Source of the DNA: Candidatus Saccharimonadota bacterium
Lineage (GTDB): Bacteria; Patescibacteriota; Gracilibacteria; BD1-5; UBA6164
DNA length: 32,000 nucleotides
Reading direction: 5' to 3'
NCBI GenBank assembly: GCA_965229705.1
Contig: OZ245922.1
Span: forward strand, 510,001 to 542,000
Below, one piece after another: positions 9,441-32,000 of the stretch (positions within the stretch are counted from its first letter, which is position 1; every line of letters starts with the position of its first letter). The notes beneath the pieces are model-generated. The model did not search any database. It was not told the origin of the DNA and saw only the letters and a program-made list of their open reading frames with translations. The position numbers and the translations under genes were made by a program.

Positions 9441-9515
9441 GCTCCTATCGTCTAGTGGTTAGGACACAGGATTCTCATTCCTGGAACCGGGGTTCGATTC
9501 CCCGTGGGAGTACCA
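9441..9515 (+). tRNA. tRNA-Glu (anticodon CUC), CCA encoded
   Basis: Hand-folded cloverleaf. Acceptor GCUCCUA/UGGGAGU, D-arm GTC-TAGTGGTTAG-GAC, anticodon arm CAGGA-TTCTCAT-TCCTG, T-arm CGGGG-TTCGATT-CCCCG, discriminator A, CCA. Confidence 0.85.
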
Positions 9516-10943
9516 TTGCTGAAAATTAAGAGATTTTATTATCTCAAAGAGTTTACTTTCCTTTATAGTAAGCTCTTTTTTATTGTTTATAATAAGTTCG
9601 CATTGCATTGCTCTAATAATTTTTCATTTTTTCGCATCATCTCATTCTTTGTAGCTAACAGATAGGTTTTCTACAAGTTCGCATAAGTCTTCTATGATTT
9701 TTACTATATTATCATCTCATTGTTTTAAAGCTTTTTGTTTTTCTTCTAATTCTTGCTTTTTACAATCTAACTCCTCTTTTTTAATATCATAAGTCTTTTT
9801 ATCTATATCATTATCTAAAAGCTTATCTAATAAACTTGCTATTCTTTCATTTGTAAGATTTAATTCTTTTGTATTTCTTCTTATATCAGCTTCTCTATTA
9901 TTTACTTTATCTTTGTAATACTCTTTTAATGTAGCTTTTGATAATGCTATAAAAGGTTTTGGAAAATTGTAGTTTTCAATATGTTTTTCAAATTCCTTAA
10001 AAATCTTCTTTTGACTTACATTTATTTTATAAGATGTTTTTGCTCATCAATGGTAATATATATTTCCTTTTGTTTCATAAGGATATAAATTGTTTCATTC
10101 TGTATCCTTTAATATATTTGTAAAATATCTTGGTAAATCTTCTCTTTTATTATATTGAATAGCTCTTGTTACTCCATTAACCTTATCAAATAACTCTTTT
10201 GAAACAAGAGGTCTATATCAAGGACTATCAAGTAATGCTTCTTGTCATCAAAACTTTTGTAATCAATAGTATTTAGTATTTACAAGCATTTTTGATACTC
10301 TTTCACTATTCCATTTTTTACCTGTCTTTTCAGCAAGAAAATTTGCTATCTCTTGTAATGTTTTATTTTGACTTCTCATTATAAAAGATTTTAAAACAAG
10401 TTCAGCTTCTTCTTCTACTACTTGAATATCTCTTTTCCCTTTAGGTCAAACATTTTTATATCAAAATATAGCTTGAGATAACCATTGTCATCTATGTAAA
10501 GCTGTAATCATTTTAGCTTTTATATCTTTACTTCTATGCTCATTATCCATTTTAGATATTCAAAGCTCTAATAAAAGCATAAACTTTGCTGATATATCAG
10601 AAGCCTCAAACTTTTTATCTGTTGTTATAATACCTTTTATTTTATTATTATCTAACAATCAAATAATTAAAGCACTATCCATTATATTTCTTGCTAATCT
10701 TTTTGTTTCATCAATTATTATATAATCTACCTTTCAATTACTACAAGCTTCTATCATTCTATTAAATCAAGCCCTTTTTCATCAAGTTTTAGCACTTACA
10801 CTTTCTTGTATTTCATCTAACACCAATAAATCACCATTAGAAGCCGAATTTCTACAATTTTTTAATTGATGTTCTAAAGAGTTTGTTTGCCTATCCTCTC
10901 TATCAGTTGATTTTCTACAATATATTATTGCTGTTTGTTTCAT
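9459..10943 (-). CDS. large serine recombinase (integrase); 3' end overlaps tRNA-Glu antisense
   Basis: MKQTAIIYCRKSTDREDRQTNSLEHQ... (resolvase catalytic-Ser motif). ...VDYIIIDETKRLARN..., recombinase domain ...GYKNVGPKG...YYGLQKFGGQEALLDSPGYRPLVSKELFDKV, then a long coiled-coil region. The first in-frame TAA/TAG is at 9459-9461, inside the tRNA; checked codon by codon from 9722 down. Confidence 0.85.
9505..9528 (+). repeat. left copy of the element-bounding direct repeat (attL-like, overlaps the tRNA-Glu 3' end)
   Basis: 20 of 24 positions identical to 18395-18418 by my count. Confidence 0.55.
9546..9581 (+). terminator. intrinsic terminator after tRNA-Glu
   Basis: AAAGAGTTTAC-loop-GTAAGCTCTTT followed by TTTTT. 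The same bases are coding on the minus strand for the recombinase tail. Confidence 0.5.
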
Positions 10944-10985
10944 AAGAATAGTAAAAGTAAACTAAAAATTATCTTTAATTTTATT

Positions 10986-11010
10986 ATAACTACAATTGAT
11001 AAAAAATCAA
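10986..11010 (-). promoter_or_regulatory. palindromic box upstream of the recombinase (copy A)
   Basis: ATAACTACAATTGATAAAAAATCAA, 43-67 nt upstream of the recombinase ATG. 24 of 25 positions identical to 17439-17463. Core is ATTGAT-N5-ATCAA(T/A). Confidence 0.45.
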
Positions 11011-11034
11011 AAGAAAAAGAGGTTTTAACACCTC

Positions 11035-11157
11035 TTAATCCTCTAATATCATTGACCAAAAATTAAACATATCAATTCAAATTTGTTCAATTTCTGCATC
11101 TGTTAAGTGTGAAAACTCATTTCATAAAGCTTTCCTTATTTGCTCATTTGTAAGCAT
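11035..11157 (-). CDS. small ORF, 40 aa, unknown
   Basis: MLTNEQIRKALGNEFSHLTDAEIEQIGIDMFNFWSMILED with two TGA=Gly. Its stop overlaps the terminator hairpin AAGAGGTGTTAAAACCTCTT plus T-run (minus strand, 11013-11037). Confidence 0.3.
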
Positions 11158-11250
11158 CTTTTAACAGTTCATCAGAGGTCTTTATATGGTAGTAAAGTAT
11201 CTTTGATTTCTGTAAAAAGTCCTATATGGTAGTAGGTATATAAATTATAA

Positions 11251-12348
11251 TTATTTATCTTGTTTTTTCAATTTGATTTTCTCCTTGATTTTATACTTAT
11301 TGATATTTCAATTATGTATTTCAGTTTCAATTTTAGAAAATGGATATTTCTTTTTTAACTCAACAAATTTTTTATCATTTCATAAAATGTTTAAATCTCA
11401 TTCAATAAAACCTATTTTTCAATCATTATCCTTTAATAATGTAACTTTTATATAATCAGTATTTCATATAAGTTCTAATACCTCTTTTGGTATATCATTT
11501 TTAGTTATTTTTCTTTTTTCTAAAGAGTATTTTTCTAAATATTTCTTTATAAGTTCAGGATTGTATTTATCTACTAAAGGAGCAAATATTTTATTTAAAT
11601 TAAAGGCTAAAACAGGATAATCTAAAGTCTTTTCTAAATTTTCACCATTTACTATAAAAAAATCATTATTTTTATAATTGCATAAATATAATTTTTCTTC
11701 TAAAAATACAATACAGAATAACATATATTCTATTAAATAGTTTTTCTCTGTACTTTCACTATACTTAATATTTTTACTAAAATAATCTAAAAGAATTTTA
11801 TCATATTCTTGTTTTATAGCATTATAGCTTTCTTTATATTGATTTCTATCTCTTTTATCCTTTATCTTCCTATATTTTATATAATCTAATACCCCTCAAG
11901 ATAAAATCCTTTGTATTATATCATCAGAATTTAATTGTTTGTTTAATACATTTATAGCTATTTCTCAATCTCAATATTTATTCTTTTCTTCAAACTTCTC
12001 AATTATCTTATTATTCAATAATTTAAAAATTCTTCTCAATAGTCAAACACTAAGTCAAAATCAAACAAATTTTTCAATAATAAGTATTTTTAAATAATCC
12101 TCTATTCAAAGTTCTAAATTGTAATCATCTAAAACTACAAAATCAATATCAAATAAGTTCTTATAAGCTTGATAATCTATTAAAATTTCTTCTTCTAACT
12201 TCTTTCATTTTCTATCTGATAATTTAATTTTTTGCTCACCTAAAGAAAAGATTTTATAAATTTCTTTCTTTATAAAATCTTCGTAAATGATAATCTGTTT
12301 ATATTCAAAGAAAATACTCTTTTCTTTTTTAATTTGTTTATTGGTCAT
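11251..12348 (-). CDS. hypothetical protein, 365 aa, no recognisable domain
   Basis: ATG 12348, TAA 11251-11253, verified line by line; contains supplied ORF 11464-11724 in frame. Lys/Ile/Asn-rich. Starts 23 nt after the res stop, so probably co-transcribed. Confidence 0.6.
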
Positions 12349-12370
12349 AATAGATAAAGATAAAAGCTTA

Positions 12371-15001
12371 TTAAAACTTCTTAGTAAAAGTATTTTTAAA
12401 ATCTACTTCTAAATCTCTATTGTAAAATGGTAAACCTATTAAATAGTATTTTCAAAGGTTTAAATCTATAATTTGAGCCTCATCTTCAATATTTAATAAA
12501 AACTTTTGTTTCCATCATTCTTTTCAGTTTTCAAATCATCATTGAGCATCTTTAAACTCATTTCATTTAGGTTCAATAAATACTTGGTAAGTTATTGCTT
12601 CTTGCTTTCATTTCTCTTTCATAAATAATACAAAGTCTGGCTCAAATCTACCACCATCATCAAAGGAGTATATAGCAAAGTGTCTTTCATTTCTAAATAA
12701 GTAAATATCATCATATTTTTTCTTTAATTCATCAAATTCAATTTCAAATAAACTTAAAAAATCTTCTTCTTCTGAAGTAGCTACTATTTCACTAAATGTA
12801 AAGTAATCAGTATTTTTTTCTATAACTCTTTTACTTCAATCAATTTGTATAACTTTTGTTTCAAACACTTCTGCTAATGATTTTTCTTTAAATTCTTTTG
12901 TTCACTTATATTCTGTATTTTGTGAGGCTATTTCTTTTTCAAGTTTAGCTAAAACATTACTTACAGCATTGAGAAAAGACTCTCTATCAATTACTTCTAC
13001 TTTGTTTTTATCTCATCTAAAAGTAATTTCTACATCTCATAAAAGTCATTCTTCTTGTATGAAATTATCAATACTTTCTAATGCTCAGAAATATTTTTTT
13101 AAGTTAGAGAATTTATAAAATCTATTTTTATGTAATGCTTTTAAAACAATGATTTTATCAATTTCTGATACTTTTACAGTATCTATAATACCTAAATCAA
13201 TATTTTCATTTTGTTTACTCTTTGTATCTTCAAACAATACTTCTGTTCATCATCTACCAGTATAAATATTATAATCAAAAGATTTTTGAGTAATTCAATA
13301 TTTTTGAAAGCTTTTATAATCTCAAGTATTTACTTCAATTCTACTATTAACATATATAACAGAATTTTTTAAGAAAGTACTTATTTTATTATCTTCTTTA
13401 ACTTTAACAGTGAAAGGTGTTTTATCACTTTCATCTATCATACCAGTATTTTTCAATGCCTCCCTAATTTCAGAGATGTATTTACTATCATAGCTAGTAT
13501 GATAGTAAAATGTTTCAAGTATTTTTAAGTCATTATCTGTACCATCAAACTTTCTTTTGTATTTTTCTTCTCAAATAAAATTTTTATAAGTAAATGGATA
13601 ATATCTTGCTCATCTTCAGATCAGCTGTGCTTCACTCATAGTGCTTTTTCAAGGAGAGTATTTTCCATCTTTTTTCCAGTCTCAATCTCTTCATTCATAC
13701 ATTCTAACAATATCAAAAAGGTTTAATACATCCCATCACTCATTTAGCTTTTGAACAGCAAAAATCGCTCTTATTCTATTGTTTTTATCTTCTAAGGAGT
13801 TTAGTATATATTGTTGAGAAATTACTTCTTCTTTATCTTGTATTTTTATACTTTTCTTTTCTACATTTTCCTCATTTACATTTAAACATTTTTCTGGAGC
13901 AAAGTCATTTTTTAACTCATCTACCAATAACTCAAGCTTTATATTATTTTTTTCAAAGTATTTAAAAGCTTCAATCACAATATCTACATTTGTTTCATTT
14001 TTTACTTTTTCTAAATCTAATACTTTTAAGTTTTTTATTATATCATTAAAAAATAACTCATTTTCTTTACTTTCTTTAATCTCTTTTTGAGCTTTAAATA
14101 AAATAACTGGCTTACAAGAGATTTTATTGTTTTCAGCTACTTTTAATCTATATTGACTTAAAATAATTGCTTGTAAGACTCTTTCTTTTTGACTCAAATC
14201 AGTTTTAACTAAATCTACCTCTTTACTGTAGCCATCTAATCTAAATTGTTTTAAATCATATTTATATAGTATTTTTTCAGCATATTTTTCAGCTATATTT
14301 GGGTTTCTATCATCAATAGTAGCTGTAAACTCTAAAAGTAGGTTTCTAGTATGTTTATTTAATATTTTTAAGACTGTATACTCCCAAGATTTCTTTTCCT
14401 TTTTTTCATCAGTATTTAATTTTGATTTAGTTAAAGAATTTATATGATGGGCTTCATCAGAAATAATAACTACCTCATTATCATCAAAATCCTCATAGGT
14501 TATAGAGTTTTCTTTTGGGGTGTTTAAATCACTATGTAAACCTTGAATAGTAGTAAATTTTATTTGTATATCTTCTTTGTTGTTAGATGTAAAATTTTCT
14601 ACTTCTTTTATATGTACTGTTTTATCTCCAAGTCTTATTTCTTTTCAAAATAAGTATTTATTTGAAGCATCATTTAGAAAGTTATCCTTTGTTTTTTCTA
14701 TAATGTTTTTTGAATTAACAAAAAATAGAAAGTTTCTATATCATTTTTCATATAGGTATAATATTATTCAAGCCATTATAAAAGTTTTTCAACTTCAAGT
14801 AGCCATATTGAATAATAAGTGTATTGGTACTGATTTATTAGGATAACTTGAAAAATAATAAAAAAACCTTGAGAAAGCTTCTATTTGGTAAGGTCTTATA
14901 GTAAAACTTTCTCTTATATTGTTTTTTACAAAGTCTGGTATTTCCTTTGAGATAGCACCAACCTCATTTAAAGTATCAAATTTTTCATATAAATTTGGCA
15001 T
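12371..15001 (-). CDS. res: Type III restriction endonuclease, Res subunit (SF2 helicase + C-terminal PD-(D/E)xK-like nuclease)
   Basis: TIRPYQIEAF, LLFNMATGSGKT (Walker A, both Gly are TGA), VVIISDEAHHI (DEAH), QKLNEGWDVLNLFDIVRMY. C-terminal GGRFEPDFVLFMKEKG...YQVFIEPKG. Continuous from 15001 to TAA 12371-12373, checked codon by codon. 876 aa. Confidence 0.85.
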
Positions 15002-15006
15002 TTGTT

Positions 15007-15264
15007 TTACTGGTTACTATTTTTTTTATTCTTTTTAGCTTGACTTAAAGCACTTCAAGCAATTGATTTTGATTTCTTACTAGTTCTTCAATCTCTTAAA
15101 ACACTAGATGCTTTTGATGCTACTTTTTTTGAAGTTTGTTTTTTTGTTCAAGTTTGACTCAAAGCACTTCAAGCAACTGATTTTGTTTTTTTTCAAACAT
15201 TATCTTTTTTTAATTTATTTGAAGAAATTTTTGCCACCTTTTTTGAAGTTTGTTTTTTGTTCAT
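15007..15264 (-). CDS. small highly basic protein with an internal tandem duplication, unknown function
   Basis: MNKKQTSKKVAKISSNKLKKDNVGKKTKSVAGSALSQTGTKKQTSKKVASKASSVLRDGRTSKKSKSIAGSALSQAKKNKKNSNQ (85 aa). Starts 11 nt after the mod stop and ends 6 nt before the res ATG. The duplication is also visible at DNA level. Confidence 0.55.
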
Positions 15265-15274
15265 AAATTTAAAA

Positions 15275-17200
15275 TTAATTATAAAAATTATTATTGAGTT
15301 TTATATCCTCATCAGACACTTTATTATTTTTATCTTCTATTTCACTATAATTTAGATATAGCAAGTTTTTATCTAATATATCTATTAAAAAATCTTTTTG
15401 TTCTTCAATACTTAGAGCTTTAAAATCTTGAATACTATTATCTATATCACTCACATTTACACTATAATTTATAAATGCACTTTCCTTTATTTCTCACCAT
15501 ATTTTTAATAAACTCTCAGTATTCTTTGCTTTACCAATCATTGATATATAGGACTCATTTTCTTCAATCATTTGCATATATATAAATTCACCTCATCATT
15601 TCCATTTAAAAGCCTTTGTTACTCATCATTCTTCTCAGTCTATAACTTTTTTTAGTCTTTCTACTGCAACATCTTCAATATAATCCATTTGTTCCACTCC
15701 TATATATTGTCTTCACATTTTATGAGCAACTGCACAAGTAGTACCACTTCACAAATGATAATCCATTATTATATCTCATTCTTGAGTTACTGCTTTTATT
15801 AAGAATGCAACTAAACTTTCAGGTTTTGGGAAAGATGGAAAATCTAATTCTAGTGAGTCAATATGCTTTTTAGAGTCTTCATTTGTATCAACTCAGATTG
15901 ATTTATTTAGATAATTATTTTCTACAAACTTTTCTGGAGCAATATTTGAAGCACTTTTCCTTTGGTATCTAATAGAAAACTTTTTAGTTTTTATTAGAAA
16001 ATAAGTTCAATCTTTAACTTCTTGGTCAAAGTTCTTTTGACTCCATTTAAATTCTCACTTAATTCTTACAGAATTTTTATTTAATCATTCTTGCACTATT
16101 AAATCATCCAATAGTTCTATTCTGTCATAAGTTCATTTTTTATATTCTCCATCAGGTATATTAAATCTAATTTTTTCTTCTGGAAATAACAAAGTTCAAA
16201 TATTATTTCAGCTATTTAAAAGAGGAGCATCACAATTTTCACTTTCTTTTCACTTATATGATACAGATAACTTAACTTGTTTTTCATAACAATGTATAAA
16301 TTCCCAACCTCACCTTGTTTTTCAAGATAATGTTGGCGAATTATCAGTATTTTTCCATATAAAAGTGTCTATAAAGTTTGTTTCTTTAAAAATTTCATCC
16401 ATTAAAACTTTTAGGTACCCTTGTTCATTGTCATCACATTGAACAAATATAACACCATCATTACTTAAAAAATCTCTAGCAACTTCAAGCCTATTTTTCA
16501 TAAATGTTAGCCAAGTAGAATGATTAAATCTATCATTATACTTGAATGTATCATTTTGTGTATTATATGGAGGGTCAATATATATAAGTTTTACTTTTCA
16601 AGCAAACTTTGATTTTAATGAGTGTAAAGCTAATAAGTTATTTCATTTTATTATTAAATTATCTTTTATATCTCAATTTTCATCTTTCTTAAAATTTTCT
16701 AATTTATGTTCTCAATCTTTATCAATTCTCTTAAAATTTGTAAATATTTTTTCTCATAATAAAACATCTATTTCATCACTTCACAAAATATCATTATAAA
16801 ATACTTCTTCTCTTTTACTATCTTCTTTATCTTGACCTCAAGCTAAAATACAATCCTTATAAGCCCAAGCAAGAGAAATTTCATTACTCTCAGCTAAGTA
16901 TTCTCAATTTTTATTTATAAGTCCTATTTTGTTTTTATAAGAAGTATAACTATCTGGTAAAAATTGTTTATTATCTACAAATCTAATAAATTTGTTACTA
17001 TCAAAAACTTTTACATCTTTTATATCAATAAAAAACTTACTTCTTGTTATTTCATCATCTAGTAACAAAGAAATTAAGTTTTCATCTAAGTTATATGCTA
17101 ATTCTTGTATTTTATTTTTTAATAAATCTCAATCTTGAGAAATTAGCCTATCATCTTTTTTAAGAATATCATAAACTGTATTCAATAAGTTATTACTCAT
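15275..17200 (-). CDS. mod: Type III R-M DNA methyltransferase, Mod subunit
   Basis: AYKDCILAGGQDKEDSKREEVFYNDIL, KVKLIYIDPPYNTQNDTFKYNDRFNHSTWLTFMKNRLEVARDFLSNDGVIFVQCDD, FPKPESLVAFLIKAVTQEGDIIMDYHLGSGTTCAVAHKMGRQYIGVEQ. 641 aa, TAA stop. Confidence 0.85.
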
Positions 17201-17203
17201 TTT

Positions 17204-17407
17204 TTATTTAGTTAAAGTAAATAAATCATTTGGCTTACATTTTAAGCCTTTTAGAAGCTCTCAAATTGTTTCAAAGCTTATTTTAGTAGTTCTCCCTTCT
17301 TTTATATTCCAAAGTTGTTGATAGCTTAAATTTACTTCTTTTTCTAAATCACTCAATTTCATATTTTTCTTCTCAAGTAGGGCTTCTATATTTAGTTCTA
17401 CTTTCAT
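17204..17407 (-). CDS. XRE/Cro-type helix-turn-helix regulator (controller-protein position of the R-M operon)
   Basis: MKVELNIEALLEKKNMKLSDLEKEVNLSYQQLWNIKEGRTTKISFETIGELLKGLKCKPNDLFTLTK (67 aa). Ends 4 nt before the mod ATG. Paralogue of the ORF at 30904-31131. Confidence 0.75.
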
Positions 17408-17438
17408 ATATTTTATATTACATACTAACTTTCTTAAT

Positions 17439-17463
17439 ATAACTATAATTGATAAAAAATCAA
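17439..17463 (-). promoter_or_regulatory. palindromic box upstream of the XRE gene (copy B)
   Basis: ATAACTATAATTGATAAAAAATCAA, 32-56 nt upstream of the HTH ATG. Contains the perfect inverted repeat ATTGAT-AAAAA-ATCAAT (17448-17464). Confidence 0.45.
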
Positions 17464-17474
17464 TCTAAAAATTA

Positions 17475-18077
17475 TTACATTGTTAAATATTGCTTTTCTA
17501 TTTGATAAAGTACCTCTAAAGGTATATCTCATCTCATAAGTTTTAAATACCTTTTATATTTTCTTGTTTCTTTTCAATTCCTAAACTTATATTTAATTGT
17601 TTCATATAATTTTTCAGCCTCATACTCATCAGGAAAGACCTTATCAAAATCTCTCCACCTTTTACTCCTTCTTTGCTTTTCATAACACAATCCTAAAGTT
17701 TCTCTACTTGCAAAAATTCAATTATTTTGAAGATACAAAATACTACATCTATTTCAATTACAAGGACATAAAAACCACCATCTAACACCTCAATAATTAC
17801 AAGCTGTTGAAACTAAAGGTATTTTATAATCAAGCTCCTTCTTCTCTCAATTAAAATTTGTTTGAGTAAAAAACACTCTTAAATATCATCTATTTCCTCA
17901 TTTTTCTACTTCTACTCAAATATTTCAATTATCTTCTCAATTCCTTTTCCAATAAAGTCATCATCTTTGATAAGTCTTTCATTTATCTAAATATCAATAT
18001 TTCTTTAAAAATTTAATATCTATTGTTTTTGAATAATCCTCTACACTATCCTTTCAAGTTCAATATATCCTTCACAT
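17475..18077 (-). CDS. conserved-hypothetical-like Zn-ribbon protein, 200 aa
   Basis: ATG 18077, TAA 17475-17477. ...STACNYGGVRWWFLCPCNGNRCSILYLQNNGIFASRETLGLCYEKQ... has four Cys spaced as a Zn ribbon. By my hand count about 18 of 21 Gly are TGA, so the gene is invisible to a standard-code ORF finder. Confidence 0.6.
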
Positions 18078-18394
18078 AAATCTATAAATTAAGTATTAAA
18101 ACCGAAATCATTAAGCTGTAAGCCCTTTTTTACTCCATAAACTACTTTTCAAATATATAGTTTTTAGCTTATTAAAGAGATAAATCCTATTTTTAGTTTT
18201 TGGAGTGTTTATAAACTATCTATTTACATACTTATCATTATTAAAAGGTAATCTATAATTAAATCTTATTTCCCTAAAAATAGGGATAGTCTTATATTAA
18301 AACTTCCCTTAATCATTTAACTACATTTTCAGTATTTTTTTGATTTTTACTTACATATTCAAATAAGCCTCAAATTGTTAGCATTCACCTATTA

Positions 18395-18418
18395 TGGGAG
18401 TACCAAAATTGAAAATTA
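18395..18418 (+). repeat. right copy of the element-bounding direct repeat (attR-like, orphan tRNA-Glu 3' fragment)
   Basis: TGGGAGTACCAaaatTGAAAATTA, 9 nt before the nudix ATG. Confidence 0.55.
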
Positions 18419-18426
18419 TAATAAAC

Positions 18427-29413: not shown

Positions 29414-30922
29414 TTATGCGCCCGTAGCTCAACTGGATAGAGTAGTGGTCTTCGAAGCCATTGGTTGGGGGTTCGAATCCCTCCGGGCGTACCATTTAAG
29501 ATTATTGAAAGACTTTATAGTCTCAAAGAGTTTGTTTTCCTTTATAACAAGCTCTTTTTTGTTGCTTATAATAAGTTCGCACTGTAAAGCTCGTATTATT
29601 TTTCACTTTTTCGCACTATCTCAATTTTTATAGCTCTCTTGCAAGTTTGTTACGATTTCGCACATATCTTCAATGAGTTCTATAATATTATCCTCTCACT
29701 GCTCAATAGCCTTTCTTTGTTCTTCTAAATCTCTTTTTATCTCCTCAAACTCTTTCTTCTTCCTTTCATAAGTATCTTTATCTATAGAATCTTCCAGAAA
29801 CTTATCTACAAGACTTTCACTTTTTTGATGATTCTCTTGAGCCTTGAGTGTATTTTGGCGAAGTTTTTGCGTCTTTGATTGTACTTTATCTTTATAAATA
29901 TCCTTAAGCGTAGCTTTTGTCAGTCTTATGAAGGGTTCTGAAAAGCTATAATCTCAAAGCATTTCTCAAACTATATCAAATAGTTTATTCTCACTGATGT
30001 TGATTTTATGCTTTGATTGAGGTGTTGTATGATAATATACATACTTTTTCTTTTGAATATATCCTGAGAGCTTTACTCCGTCTTCATCATAAAGTATGTT
30101 ATCAAAATACTTAGGAATTACGCTTTTTGAATAACTTATTGCCTTTATACCATTTACTTTCTCAAAAAGCTCTTTCGATATAATAGGTTCATATCATGGA
30201 GTATTTATAAGAGCCTCTTGTCATCAAAACTTTTGAAGTCCATAATACTTCACATTCCTTAACATATTTGAAACTTTCTGACTGTCCCATTTTGTACCAC
30301 TTTCAGAAGCCAAAAACTCGGCAATAGGTTTAAGAGCTATCTTTTGACTCCTCATTATAAAAGCCCTTCTTACCAAATCAGCCTCTTTTTCTATTACTTC
30401 TATTCCTTTACTCCCCTTTTTAATAGTTATATTCTTATATCCAAAAGGAAACTTAGAAAGTACTTTTCAAGATAAAAGAGCTGTCTCCATATTCTTTTTT
30501 ACCTTTTTACTCCGAAGAGAGTTATCAAGCTTCGCCATTCATAACTGTTGCCATAACATATTGATGGCAAAATCATCTTCTGAGCCTATAAGTCTTCCAT
30601 TTACATATAGTCCTTTTATACTTCAAGAACGAAGCATAGTAGTAAAATTTGCTGTATCTATATCATCTCTTGAGAGTCTGTCTGCTTCGTCAATGATTAT
30701 GTAGTCTACTTTTCAACTTTTTCAAGCTTCTAGTAATCTCTCAAAGCCCTTCCTTGTACCTGATTCTTTCGCGCTCACGCTTTCAACTATTTCATCTAAA
30801 ACAATAAGTTCAAGACTTGAGGCAAGGTCTCTACACTTTTTTAACTGCGTAACATGAGTATTTTGCTGTCTTCACTCTCTATCAGTCGATTTCCTACAGT
30901 ATATTATTGCTGTTTGTTTCAT
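29414..30922 (-). CDS. large serine recombinase, paralogue of 9459-10943; ORF reads antisense across the whole tRNA-Arg
   Basis: MKQTAIIYCRKSTDREGRQQNTHVTQLKKC...VDYIIIDEADRLSRD...YYGLQKFGGQEALINTPGYEPIISKELFEKV..., then a coiled coil. The first in-frame TAA is at 29414-29416; checked codon by codon from 29650 down. Confidence 0.8.
29418..29494 (+). tRNA. tRNA-Arg (anticodon UCG), CCA encoded
   Basis: Acceptor GCGCCCG/CGGGCGU, D-arm GCTC-AACTGGATA-GAGT, anticodon arm GTGGT-CTTCGAA-GCCAT, T-arm GGGGG-TTCGAAT-CCCTC, ACCA. A TTTACT-17nt-TATAAT promoter-like pair lies just upstream. Confidence 0.85.
29525..29560 (+). terminator. intrinsic terminator after tRNA-Arg
   Basis: AAAGAGTTTGTT-loop-AACAAGCTCTTT plus TTTTT. 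Nearly the same sequence as the terminator after tRNA-Glu. Confidence 0.5.
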
Positions 30923-31131
30923 GCTTCGTTTTGCTCAATTTTAAAAAGTTGATTTGGAGAACATTTAAATGCTCAGAGGAGTCTTCATATTGTCTCAAAC
31001 TCTATTTTTACCGTCTTTCATTTTCTCATATTCCATAATGCTTGATAACTAATTCATGTTTCTGATTCAAGCCATCTAAGATTTCTATTTTTCTTATCAA
31101 GAAGTGATTGTATATTCAGAAAAACTTTCAT
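30904..31131 (-). CDS. XRE/Cro-type HTH regulator, paralogue of 17204-17407
   Basis: MKVFLNIQSLLDKKNRNLRWLESETGISYQALWNMRKGKTVKIEFETIGRLLGAFKCSPNQLFKIEQNEAGNKQQ (75 aa). Its 3' end overlaps the recombinase ATG by 19 nt. Confidence 0.7.
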
Positions 31132-31182
31132 AAATAATATGCATAAATATATGTACTATATTATATCTATAGATGATATATT

Positions 31183-31217
31183 ACAAAATAAAAACCCTCA
31201 TGAAAAATGAAGGTTTT
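31183..31217 (-). terminator. intrinsic terminator of the lipoprotein gene
   Basis: Minus strand: AAAACCTTCA-TTTTTCA-TGAGGGTTTT followed by TATTTTG. Lies 22 nt past the TAG at 31239-31241. Confidence 0.5.
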
Positions 31218-31238
31218 ACTCTAAATTGGAGTACTTTT

Positions 31239-31604
31239 CTATCTATGCTCGTCAGCTCCATGCATCTCTACATCTTCTCCATCATGAAATTCTTTCATAT
31301 GTTTTTCATCTTCTGTCATTTCATCATGGTTCATCATTTCCTTATCATCTTCTATCATATGAGAGTCGTCTGACATATCCATTTTTGAATGGTCCATACT
31401 ATCTGAACCATGACCCATCTTTAAATGGTCTTCAATAGTCATGTTCATTCGAGCAGCAGCGTCTTTTTGCTCTTTATATTCTTCAAGCGAAAGACCGTAT
31501 TTTTCTGCTTGCTGTGACTCTGTAAGAGGTGCTTCTGTTTTTCCACAAGATACAAGACCAAGTGAAAGAATAGCAATAAGACCGATAATAATAATTTTTT
31601 TCAT
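31239..31604 (-). CDS. Met/His/Asp-rich lipoprotein (candidate periplasmic metal-binding protein)
   Basis: MKKIIIIGLIAILSLGLVSCGK (lipobox LVSC). The tail is HLKMGHGSDSMDHSKMDMSDDSHMIEDDKEMMNHDEMTEDEKHMKEFHDGEDVEMHGADEHR. The N-terminal extension of supplied ORF 31239-31766 is not credible. Confidence 0.65.
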   Translation of the reverse strand: MKKIIIIGLIAILSLGLVSCGKTEAPLTESQQAEKYGLSLEEYKEQKDAAARMNMTIEDHLKMGHGSDSMDHSKMDMSDDSHMIEDDKEMMNHDEMTEDEKHMKEFHDGEDVEMHGADEHR

Positions 31605-31698
31605 AGTAATATGATAATAAAATAAAAAATATAATAGTTTCTTGATATTCACTTTATGGAGGAATGCAAGAATAATTTTTGTCATACATAGGAAAATT

Positions 31699-32000
31699 TT
31701 AAGAATTAGTACATCTTTCACGAAGATAAGAAAACAATATCGGAAGTATAAAAAGTGTGAGAACAATAGAGCTAATAAGTCATCCTACTACCACTATTGC
31801 AAGTGGTTTTTGAAGTTCTGCTCAAGCCCCAGTTGCCCATATCATAGGAAGTAGTCCTATAATAGAGGTAAAAGCTGTCATAAGTATAGGTCGGAGACGA
31901 AGCATTGCTCCACTTACTACTGCATCGTGAATATCGTTTTTTGAGATTTTTACTTCTGATAGTTCTGCATTATCAAGAGTCTTTTCATCCATAAGTGGAA
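31699..32000 (-). CDS. RND heavy-metal efflux pump, CusA/CzcA family, C-terminal fragment (5' end beyond window)
   Basis: ...[64 protein letters not shown], TAA at 31699-31701. Confidence 0.8.

Follow-up and report, generated by a model that had tools for sequence, protein, structure and literature searches.

A tRNA-targeting family of large serine recombinases whose attachment core probably lies within the recombinase gene, such that integration would exchange the C-terminal tail

Introduction

Why does a recombinase gene fail to stop before it has run antisense into the tRNA gene beside which its element sits, and could the attachment (att) site of that element lie inside the gene itself? 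These questions are raised by a 32,000-nt stretch of the genome of a Candidatus Saccharimonadota bacterium (Bacteria; Patescibacteriota; Gracilibacteria; BD1-5; UBA6164; GenBank assembly GCA_965229705.1, contig OZ245922.1, positions 510,001 to 542,000 of the forward strand), hereafter the window, in which two paralogous large serine recombinase (LSR) genes, recA and recB, each continue into a tRNA gene on the opposite strand. A first-pass annotation of this stretch had placed the att site inside the 3' end of the recombinase gene, had read the open frame across the tRNA as selected, and had suggested that the C-terminal tail of the protein would change with, and might report, the state of integration. 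Large serine integrases are valued for genome engineering for their short sites and one-way reactions, and the control of their directionality is an active structural question. Here, we examine the two window elements together with their homologs and argue that the att core in all likelihood does lie within the LSR gene, with integration swapping a native protein tail for a peptide encoded antisense to the tRNA.

Results and discussion

Two recombinase genes that read into tRNA genes

Throughout the window, TGA is a sense codon (Gly): translation with TGA as Gly yields long open reading frames (ORFs) across the whole stretch, TGA codons fall at conserved Gly positions, and the host genes likewise require TGA as sense. 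Since TGA is sense here, ORF calling with table 11 breaks up the genes, and all ORFs were translated with table 25 (TGA = Gly). The gene recA, the integrated form of an LSR, occupies 9459..10943 on the minus strand (494 aa, 19 in-frame TGA codons) and its product ends ...QQWYSHGESNPGSRNENPVS*, with the TAA stop at 9459-9461 lying in the D-loop of tRNA-Glu(CTC), which was called by ARAGORN at 9441..9515 on the plus strand and is the integration target on the attL side. Residues 477-494 (WYSHGESNPGSRNENPVS) are the antisense reading of this tRNA. The paralog recB (29414..30922, minus strand, 502 aa) spans the entire antisense of tRNA-Arg(TCG), the target of the second element (29418..29494, plus strand; ARAGORN), and ends ...LKWYARRDSNPQPMASKTTTLSSGATGA*, its stop at 29414-29416 being 2 nt past the 5' end of that tRNA. 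These ORF ends and C-terminal sequences, obtained with TGA as sense and with ARAGORN, are exactly those that the first-pass annotation had given. The two proteins are 54% identical and align without gaps as far as the codons TGG TAC (W-Y), which are the complement of the GTACCA end of the tRNA.

Functionally, recA and recB are LSRs, as established by Pfam and Foldseek. Both match Resolvase PF00239 (E 1.4e-20 for recA, 5.3e-15 for recB) and Recombinase PF07508 (E 1.2e-10 and 2.3e-11, respectively), with the latter domain also visible in AlphaFold2 (AF2) models, and the catalytic motif is YCRKSTD, with S12. A sequence search of the PDB matched 3g13 and 3bvp over the catalytic domain only, so the C-terminal boundaries were taken from AF2 and from Foldseek, in which the model of the homolog P0111 matched full-length structures of serine integrases (9dxd, Bxb1, PhiC31) over ~540 columns. 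No Pfam match to the zinc ribbon PF13408 was found in recA or recB, and AF2 places a beta-rich domain at the expected spot. A coiled coil is predicted as long antiparallel helices at residues 329-425 of the window protein and 344-418 of the homolog P0111, whose model (mean predicted local distance difference test, pLDDT, of 85) has the complete LSR architecture, ending in a beta-hairpin and a short helix at 458-479. The AF2 models use database sequences with W at TGA positions, and their local confidence may be lowered as a result.

The att core, the displaced tail and a sister element

Where, then, does the element end? The last 11 nt of tRNA-Glu (9505..9515, TGGGAGTACCA), whose minus strand encodes W-Y-S-(H), recur as an exact direct repeat at 18395..18405, at the far end (attR) of an integrated island of 8.9 kb (9516..18394; GC 0.238 versus 0.35-0.36 in the flanks), and this second copy coincides with the step in GC. 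Continued from the second core copy, the recombinase frame reads WYSHNRGMLTIGGLFEYVSKNQKNTENVVKGLREVLI* and stops at 18292-18294, which is the excised tail that the first-pass annotation had correctly predicted; the excised form of recA would be 513 aa long. The segment at 18292..18394 on the minus strand (…NRGMLTIGGLFEYVSKNQKNTENVVKGLREVLI*) would encode the native C-terminus of recA, displaced by integration and continuous with the ORF only when the element is excised. The predicted attP junction of the window element is …CAGCAATGGTACTCCCATAATAGG… and the predicted empty attB is …GTGGGAGTACCAAAATTGAAAATTA….

A sister element, L070, carries the two parts of the gene as one. This 9,883-bp Logan contig (GC 0.24, without a tRNA) encodes P0007, a 70% identical homolog, and its 30-nt terminal overlap implies either a circle or a tandem array. 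Its recombinase is an uninterrupted ORF of 514 aa ending …WYSSDRQMRTLSGLYEYISKSQKNAESIVGGLREALI*, and the tail of this protein has the same length as the reconstructed window tail, with the stop at the same position, conservative differences between the two, and one synonymous GGC/TGA change. By tblastx, L070 2884-4203 maps to window 10826-9507, L070 4183-4308 maps to window 18417-18292, and the next backbone gene of L070 maps to window 18038-17652; one continuous L070 sequence is therefore split, exactly at the core, between the two ends of the window island (9507 and 18417). Backbone genes of the island are common to both elements. Among the contigs looked up for other intact-tail proteins (P0069, P0072, P0078 and P0091) none is circular, which leaves L070 as the only circular or tandem form. 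The 11-nt repeat, the intact L070 ORF and the family loci described below bear out an att site within the 3' part of the recombinase ORF; likewise, the L070 ORF with its split mapping bears out a C-terminal tail that differs between the integrated and excised states.

Beyond the cores, the element arm (TTGCTGAAAATTAAGAG, 9516-9532) and the host arm (AAATTGAAAATTATAAT, 18406-18422) both hold TGAAAATTA at equal spacing past the core, which may be a half-site motif shared by the two arms or the remnant of an earlier element.

The same junction across the family

Is this geometry peculiar to the window? A protein search returned 146 homologs at E ≤ 1e-10, and at least 63 of the 110 full-length ones end in tRNA-antisense peptides, with typical endings such as …WYSHGE[SL]N[PS]…, …G[TSNA][PA]TEN(G/R)TPV…RRPCPNH and …GTPGRDRTHA…. 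Scanning species-representative genomes yielded 69 loci, mostly from Gracilibacteria, Peribacteria and Patescibacteria, in which 60 ORFs are complete and not cut by a contig end. The antisense 3' end of a tRNA is crossed by 39 of these 60, another 20 have no tRNA at their end, and a single one (L007) ends 51 nt short of the tRNA. The targets comprise seven types of tRNA (Glu-CTC, Glu-TTC, Arg-GCG, Arg-CCT, Lys, Ala, Asn, Cys and Trp). Of the intact family ORFs, all reach the terminator-like hairpin discussed below; the exceptions are L007, which is a decayed copy, and the first L010 ORF. The first-pass annotation had named the position of homologous ORF ends, relative to hairpin and tRNA, as the check on its claim, and these ends indeed lie mostly past the hairpin. 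At some 10 loci, the tRNA end recurs 5.6-9.8 kb upstream, which allows the excised tails to be reconstructed, and several of these equal the tails of unintegrated homologs (FGTTKDFDIRRFRELLGSIDLEELKEFFEKIIN at L047; WYSQSVSEGELLELLDEVDKLKNFKK at L015, compare P0034). The core identity block, 11 nt in the window, measures 10-13 nt at the other loci.

The survey also turned up several variant arrangements. Three loci, L010 (9983-11446 and 19771-21326), L017 (9965-11602 and 19353-21197) and L058 (561-1883 and 8819-10312), each have a pair of family recombinases at a single tRNA, separated by 8-10 kb. Only the tRNA-proximal recombinase of each pair reads into the tRNA, and in two of the loci, L010 and L058, the proximal island has its att repeat directly against the 3' end of the distal recombinase, which indicates tandem integration of related islands. 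Adjacent, slightly overlapping pairs of distantly related serine recombinase ORFs are present in L036 (2948-6072), L039 (8487-11485), L042 (8401-11782) and L045 (8481-11503) and recall two-recombinase systems; the second ORF of L036 reads through antisense tRNA-Asn, and that of L045 has a tRNA-like tail. Decayed copies are represented by L005 (9995-11482), which is split by an in-frame stop at ~10700, and L007 (3410-4926), which stops early. Two IMG/VR loci, L083 and L084, were considered as phages in the excised state whose recombinase has a very short tail, a reading set aside because of tRNA-like sequence past the stop: after the ending …HKWWS*, TGGTGGAGCTAGACGGATTTGAACCGACG… (~11405-11480 in L083, ~11417-11490 in L084) resembles the antisense of a tRNA 3' half (acceptor and T arm). 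ARAGORN called no tRNA gene past the recombinase stop at either locus, and the site may be an unusual or truncated tRNA target.

The tRNA-encoded tail and the native tail

Evolutionarily, the open frame inside the tRNA is an unselected by-product. As a null, 60 distinct tRNAs from the family loci were read antisense from their 3' ends, which gave median open lengths of 57, 92 and 64 nt for the three phases. The two window recombinases stay open for 57 and 81 nt inside the tRNA, and family members overall for 12-157 nt, some of them stopping only 12-15 nt into the tRNA. Two reading phases are in use, TGG TAC (W-Y) and xxT GGT ACC (G-T-P), so the tRNA-coded peptide is not conserved, and AF2 predicts this tail to be disordered (recA residues 478-494 have pLDDT <50, with values of 35-41). 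The proposal that the frame through the tRNA is kept open by selection finds no support, given the match between the observed lengths and the antisense-tRNA null, the early stops, the two phases and the predicted disorder. The companion proposal of a conserved peptide over the hairpin holds as far as conservation goes, the motif KKELxIxExxLF being family-wide, and fails as an argument for a frame held open, since the open stretch there is just conserved coding sequence.

The native tail, judged from alignments and models, looks like conserved, real protein that is predicted to form two helices in one large subgroup. In this 19-sequence subgroup, the tail is 28-33 aa long and gapless in 18 of 19 members, with a mean pairwise identity of 45%; the coiled coil reaches 43% and the body 59%. 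For the pair of window and L070, the ratio of nonsynonymous to synonymous substitution rates (dN/dS) is 0.49 in the tail and 0.16 in the 120 codons before it. In the P0111 model, residues 493-520 form two helices (pLDDT 77-84), and they follow a linker at residues 481-489 (pLDDT <50) that is encoded by the att core. The core codons vary among members (GTP, GVP, GAP, GGT, GGA, GSP and others) and their flanks are conserved, as is expected if the core tracks different tRNA targets, and on these models the placement of the core in a disordered linker looks selected.

A terminator-like hairpin within the recombinase codons

What lies between the recombinase body and the core? Within recA codons K456-F467 (KELTIKESKLF) is an intrinsic-terminator-like hairpin with a 12-bp stem, a 9-nt loop and a T tract (9546..9584, plus strand; RNAfold, minimum free energy (MFE) z = -4.08), and the second element has an equivalent hairpin and T tract (29525..29563, plus strand; RNAfold, z = -3.96), the two differing by compensatory changes (ACT/AGT versus GTT/AAC). 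All 18 loci inspected with RNAfold (the two window copies and 16 others) carry a hairpin of 10-16 bp directly followed by T5-7; it lies 20-35 nt past the tRNA, on the tRNA-sense strand, with the stem encoded by KELxIxExxLF and the T run by two Lys codons. When MFE was compared with that of 200 synonymous recodings per locus, the tRNA-sense strand had a mean z of -3.33 (n=42, with 81% of values below -1.64) and the recombinase-sense strand one of -2.37; in 11 unintegrated forms, the mean for the tRNA-sense strand was -3.78. The hairpin is under nucleotide-level selection beyond the need of the protein, and more strongly so on the strand with the U run. What the first-pass annotation had called a terminator hairpin is thus real and conserved at the nucleotide level, by the z-scores against recodings and by the T run at the inspected loci, and from its sequence we infer that it may act as a terminator that serves as the element's own insulator.

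Proposed mechanism and alternative explanations

The explanation that we consider best overall, and quite probable, is that the att core lies inside the LSR gene and that integration replaces the native tail with a tRNA-antisense peptide. Under this explanation, the two islands of the window belong to one family and each would have been inserted at a tRNA 3' end by its own LSR. The att core would duplicate the final ~10-13 nt of the target tRNA, including CCA, and would be set in frame ~30-37 codons before the true stop, in the disordered-linker segment. Crossover in the core would join the ORF body to the antisense tRNA and leave the native tail segment at the other end of the island, so that the integrated gene would encode an intact LSR fold with a short disordered tail, ending at the first TAA or TAG of the tRNA antisense, and the excised form would encode a protein with the conserved native tail. 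Codons -22 to -8 (KKELxIxExxLF), upstream of the core, would double as hairpin and U run on the opposite strand, and after integration this hairpin would stop transcription from the tRNA, or other convergent transcription, before it entered the recombinase gene in antisense. Integration replaces the last ~34 codons with 17-26 tRNA-antisense codons and leaves the LSR body untouched. The enzyme made from the integrated gene would be the one that has to perform excision, and losing the conserved two-helix tail probably alters its behavior.

Several observations weigh against this explanation. Neither the empty attB nor the attP junction of this exact element was found in the metagenome collection, and the attP pattern was absent from the viral collection; because neither junction was found, the crossover had to be deduced from the repeats and the sister element. 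The terminal overlap of L070 can also be explained by a tandem array rather than a free circle, and the crossover is placed to the identity block (11 nt), not to a dinucleotide or to half-sites. The dN/dS of the tail is based on 34 codons of one pair, and tails differ between subfamilies, which argues against assuming one common tail function. Among the island proteins, no recombination directionality factor is recognizable, although such factors share no signature and one may be present. Lastly, the window hairpin went uncalled in a consensus terminator scan, because its 9-nt loop exceeds the loop limit of 8 set in that scan. A reading under which the ORFs simply lack an earlier stop, as pseudogenes or through translation with a wrong code, and the att site lies outside the gene, nonetheless appears to us extremely improbable: it would accord with the chance openness of antisense tRNA over similar lengths and with the few broken homologs (the split L005 and the early-stopping L007), but TGA sits at conserved Gly positions and the host genes need TGA as sense, the same junction geometry recurs at 39 independent loci and seven tRNA types, and the uninterrupted ORF of L070 ends at the very stop of the reconstructed window ORF.

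Two further alternatives concern function. The hairpin, instead of terminating transcription, could serve the recombinase as an accessory site at the DNA level, or could be a fold of the recombinase mRNA with an effect on stability or on translation; consistent with this, it also beats recodings on the recombinase-sense strand, it is retained in unintegrated forms that have no tRNA upstream, and the terminator scan made no call. We consider such a role unlikely, since stability and z are greater on the tRNA-sense strand, where G-U pairs form, since every inspected locus has a T run of 5-7 past the stem on that strand and none on the other, since convergent genes end at the hairpin in unintegrated contexts (L072), and since the hairpin lies 30-70 nt from the core, beyond the usual extent of LSR att sites, which are normally ~40-50 bp and centered on the crossover. 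The tail exchange, for its part, could act as a state sensor or directionality switch, in which the native two-helix tail, found only in the excised form, would bias the enzyme toward attP × attB, and the disordered tRNA-coded tail would relax a block on attL × attR or alter stability, with no need of a separate directionality factor. The swap itself is real, and the conservation of the native tail in length and sequence, with its predicted fold, makes the idea plausible; in the AF2 model, moreover, this tail begins right where the last zinc-ribbon-like strands and helix end, close to the base of the coiled coil, the element that controls LSR directionality. Cassettes without a recombinase, downstream of some members, keep tail-like segments after each core, and the island genes include no obvious directionality factor. 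Against this, the tails are not homologous across subfamilies, the integrated tails, read in two phases, vary in length between 4 and ~50 codons and so bring no specific gain, small unannotated island proteins could be directionality factors, and AF2 is uninformative on tail docking. On balance, we regard a switch of this kind as doubtful, though worth keeping in view.

Comparison with known systems

Like the characterized LSRs (PhiC31, Bxb1, A118/LI, TP901-1), the window family has the catalytic RxST serine, the recombinase domain and the beta-rich domain with a coiled-coil insertion, and in the integrated element the gene again adjoins the att site at one end. Unlike them, with their attP beside the gene and mostly protein-coding targets, the window family appears to hold attP in the ORF and targets the tRNA 3' end; it also lacks a Pfam zinc-ribbon match and carries an antisense terminator-like hairpin within its coding sequence. 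Limited literature phrase searches found no earlier case of an LSR whose own ORF contains attP, a weak negative that agrees with the remark in the first-pass annotation that such an arrangement was not known for large serine recombinases, and the main text of the largest LSR survey (6,207 LSRs) leaves tRNA unmentioned (Durrant et al. 2022).

The precedents for attP within a gene belong to other enzyme families or concern another gene. In the SSV1-type archaeal tyrosine integrases, attP lies within the int ORF, the target is a tRNA gene, and integration changes the product. They resemble the window family in having att inside the integrase frame and a tRNA gene as target, but they belong to the unrelated tyrosine family and their gene is split and disrupted by integration, whereas in the window family only the last ~34 codons are swapped and the body remains intact. 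In the integration-dependent immunity of mycobacteriophage BPs and its relatives, attP lies in the 3' part of a gene whose free and integrated forms differ in C-terminus and in behavior (PMC4557955). The gene in BPs is a repressor, the integrase is of the tyrosine type, and the removal of a degradation tag was demonstrated experimentally, whereas in the window family the gene is that of the recombinase itself. In phiRSM, a serine recombinase uses a 13-bp site at the 3' end of tRNA-Ser and catalyzes both directions (PMC4471427). Both phiRSM and the window family thus employ a serine recombinase with a tRNA 3' end as attB, but the phiRSM enzyme is of the small resolvase/invertase type and its attP lies between orf14 and orf15 (PMC4471427), compared with an LSR of ~500 aa and a core in the ORF.

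From a practical perspective, a family whose C-terminus varies with integration state would offer a direct and cheap experiment on the region beyond the coiled coil and on direction. The core in the disordered linker, which varies with the target tRNA (GTP, GVP, GAP, GGA, W-Y and others) between conserved flanks, suggests a modular route to retargeting, and a protein-coding antisense terminator would be a clean example of overlapping codes in which nucleotide-level selection is measurable. For annotation, family ORFs that run into tRNA genes are best kept as real junction products and not trimmed, and the 'missing' C-terminus is to be sought at the other end of the island. The family further defines a common class of small (6-10 kb), defense-carrying islands of Gracilibacteria/Patescibacteria, together with their insertion sites.

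TGA-rich recombinase genes in standard-code islands

A group of family loci combines a TGA-rich recombinase gene with neighbors of another codon usage. Such genes occur, in records labeled Campylobacterota or Gammaproteobacteria and in unassigned contigs, at L071 1946-3505, L072 1673-3211, L075 579-2126, L076 3298-4857, L020 9992-12910 and L040 8933-12893, and further ones at L011, L013, L023, L031, L035 and L037. At the loci counted, these recombinase genes have 18-24 in-frame TGA codons at Gly positions versus 5-8 GGN codons, with 7-16 TGA codons in others (7 in L011), and the ORFs are otherwise intact; one or two downstream genes or cassettes are sometimes TGA-rich as well. The neighboring genes have no in-frame TGA, or at most one or two, and 10-30 GGN codons, and they include Gabija-like OLD+UvrD, SMODS/ThiF/JAB of a cyclic oligonucleotide-based antiphage signaling system (CBASS), type III restriction-modification (R-M), AAA_14/DUF4143, DnaJ and a tyrosine integrase. 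By codon content, the recombinase gene is an apparent code-25-only gene inside standard-code defense islands, and we found no description in the literature of a single code-25 gene in such a setting. According to published work, phages free of TGA can interact with hosts of code 25 as well as with standard-code ones (PMC10746230). Recombinases of the branch with the 'FDIRTFK' tail have an intact tail and no tRNA, and their records are labeled Sulfurimonas, Arcobacter, Campylobacterales, Motiliproteus, Neptuniibacter, Colwellia and Agarilytica, in addition to unassigned contigs. It is in the contigs of this branch that the recombinase gene, by itself or along with one or two cassettes downstream, has ~10-24 in-frame TGA codons at Gly positions, apart from the 7 of L011, next to neighbors that have essentially none.

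At two of the TGA-rich loci, the tail segment is repeated downstream of the recombinase: in L040 at 10386-10551, ~11974-12060 and 12995-13197 (95% identical), and in L020 at 11450-11675 and 12962-13223, with the copy that is not joined to the recombinase having gained stop codons. At both loci, a hairpin, a T run and a core-like GGT NNN ('T GGT NCT') stand in front of every tail copy, and one TGA-rich gene lies between copies, a layout that looks like an integron-like array of cassettes, devoid of a recombinase, docked at the att core. A more far-reaching scheme, which we judge improbable, would combine these strands: two integration-state isoforms would exist, with the tail exchange itself being the control of directionality (the excised form integration-only, the integrated form excision-competent, with no separate factor), and in a related branch the module of core, tail and terminator would dock recombinase-less defense cassettes, the recombinase gene, with TGA as Gly, being translatable only in code-25 cells.

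Other features of the window

The cargo of the window island is a type III R-M system, with Res at 12371-15001 and Mod at 15275-17200. Between the two lies an 85-aa Lys/Ser-rich ORF (15007-15264, minus strand) that has no Pfam match and contains an internal direct repeat at 114-nt spacing, its 58-nt copies (15021-15078 and 15135-15192) being 81% identical. The NUDIX gene that follows the second core repeat is host DNA. For the tRNA-Arg element, no far-end repeat was found within the window, and the region 29495-32000 is without a low-GC signature. Beyond recB, this region encodes a small His/Asp/Met-rich protein (31239-31685, no TGA), followed by the end of a resistance-nodulation-division (RND)-type efflux gene.

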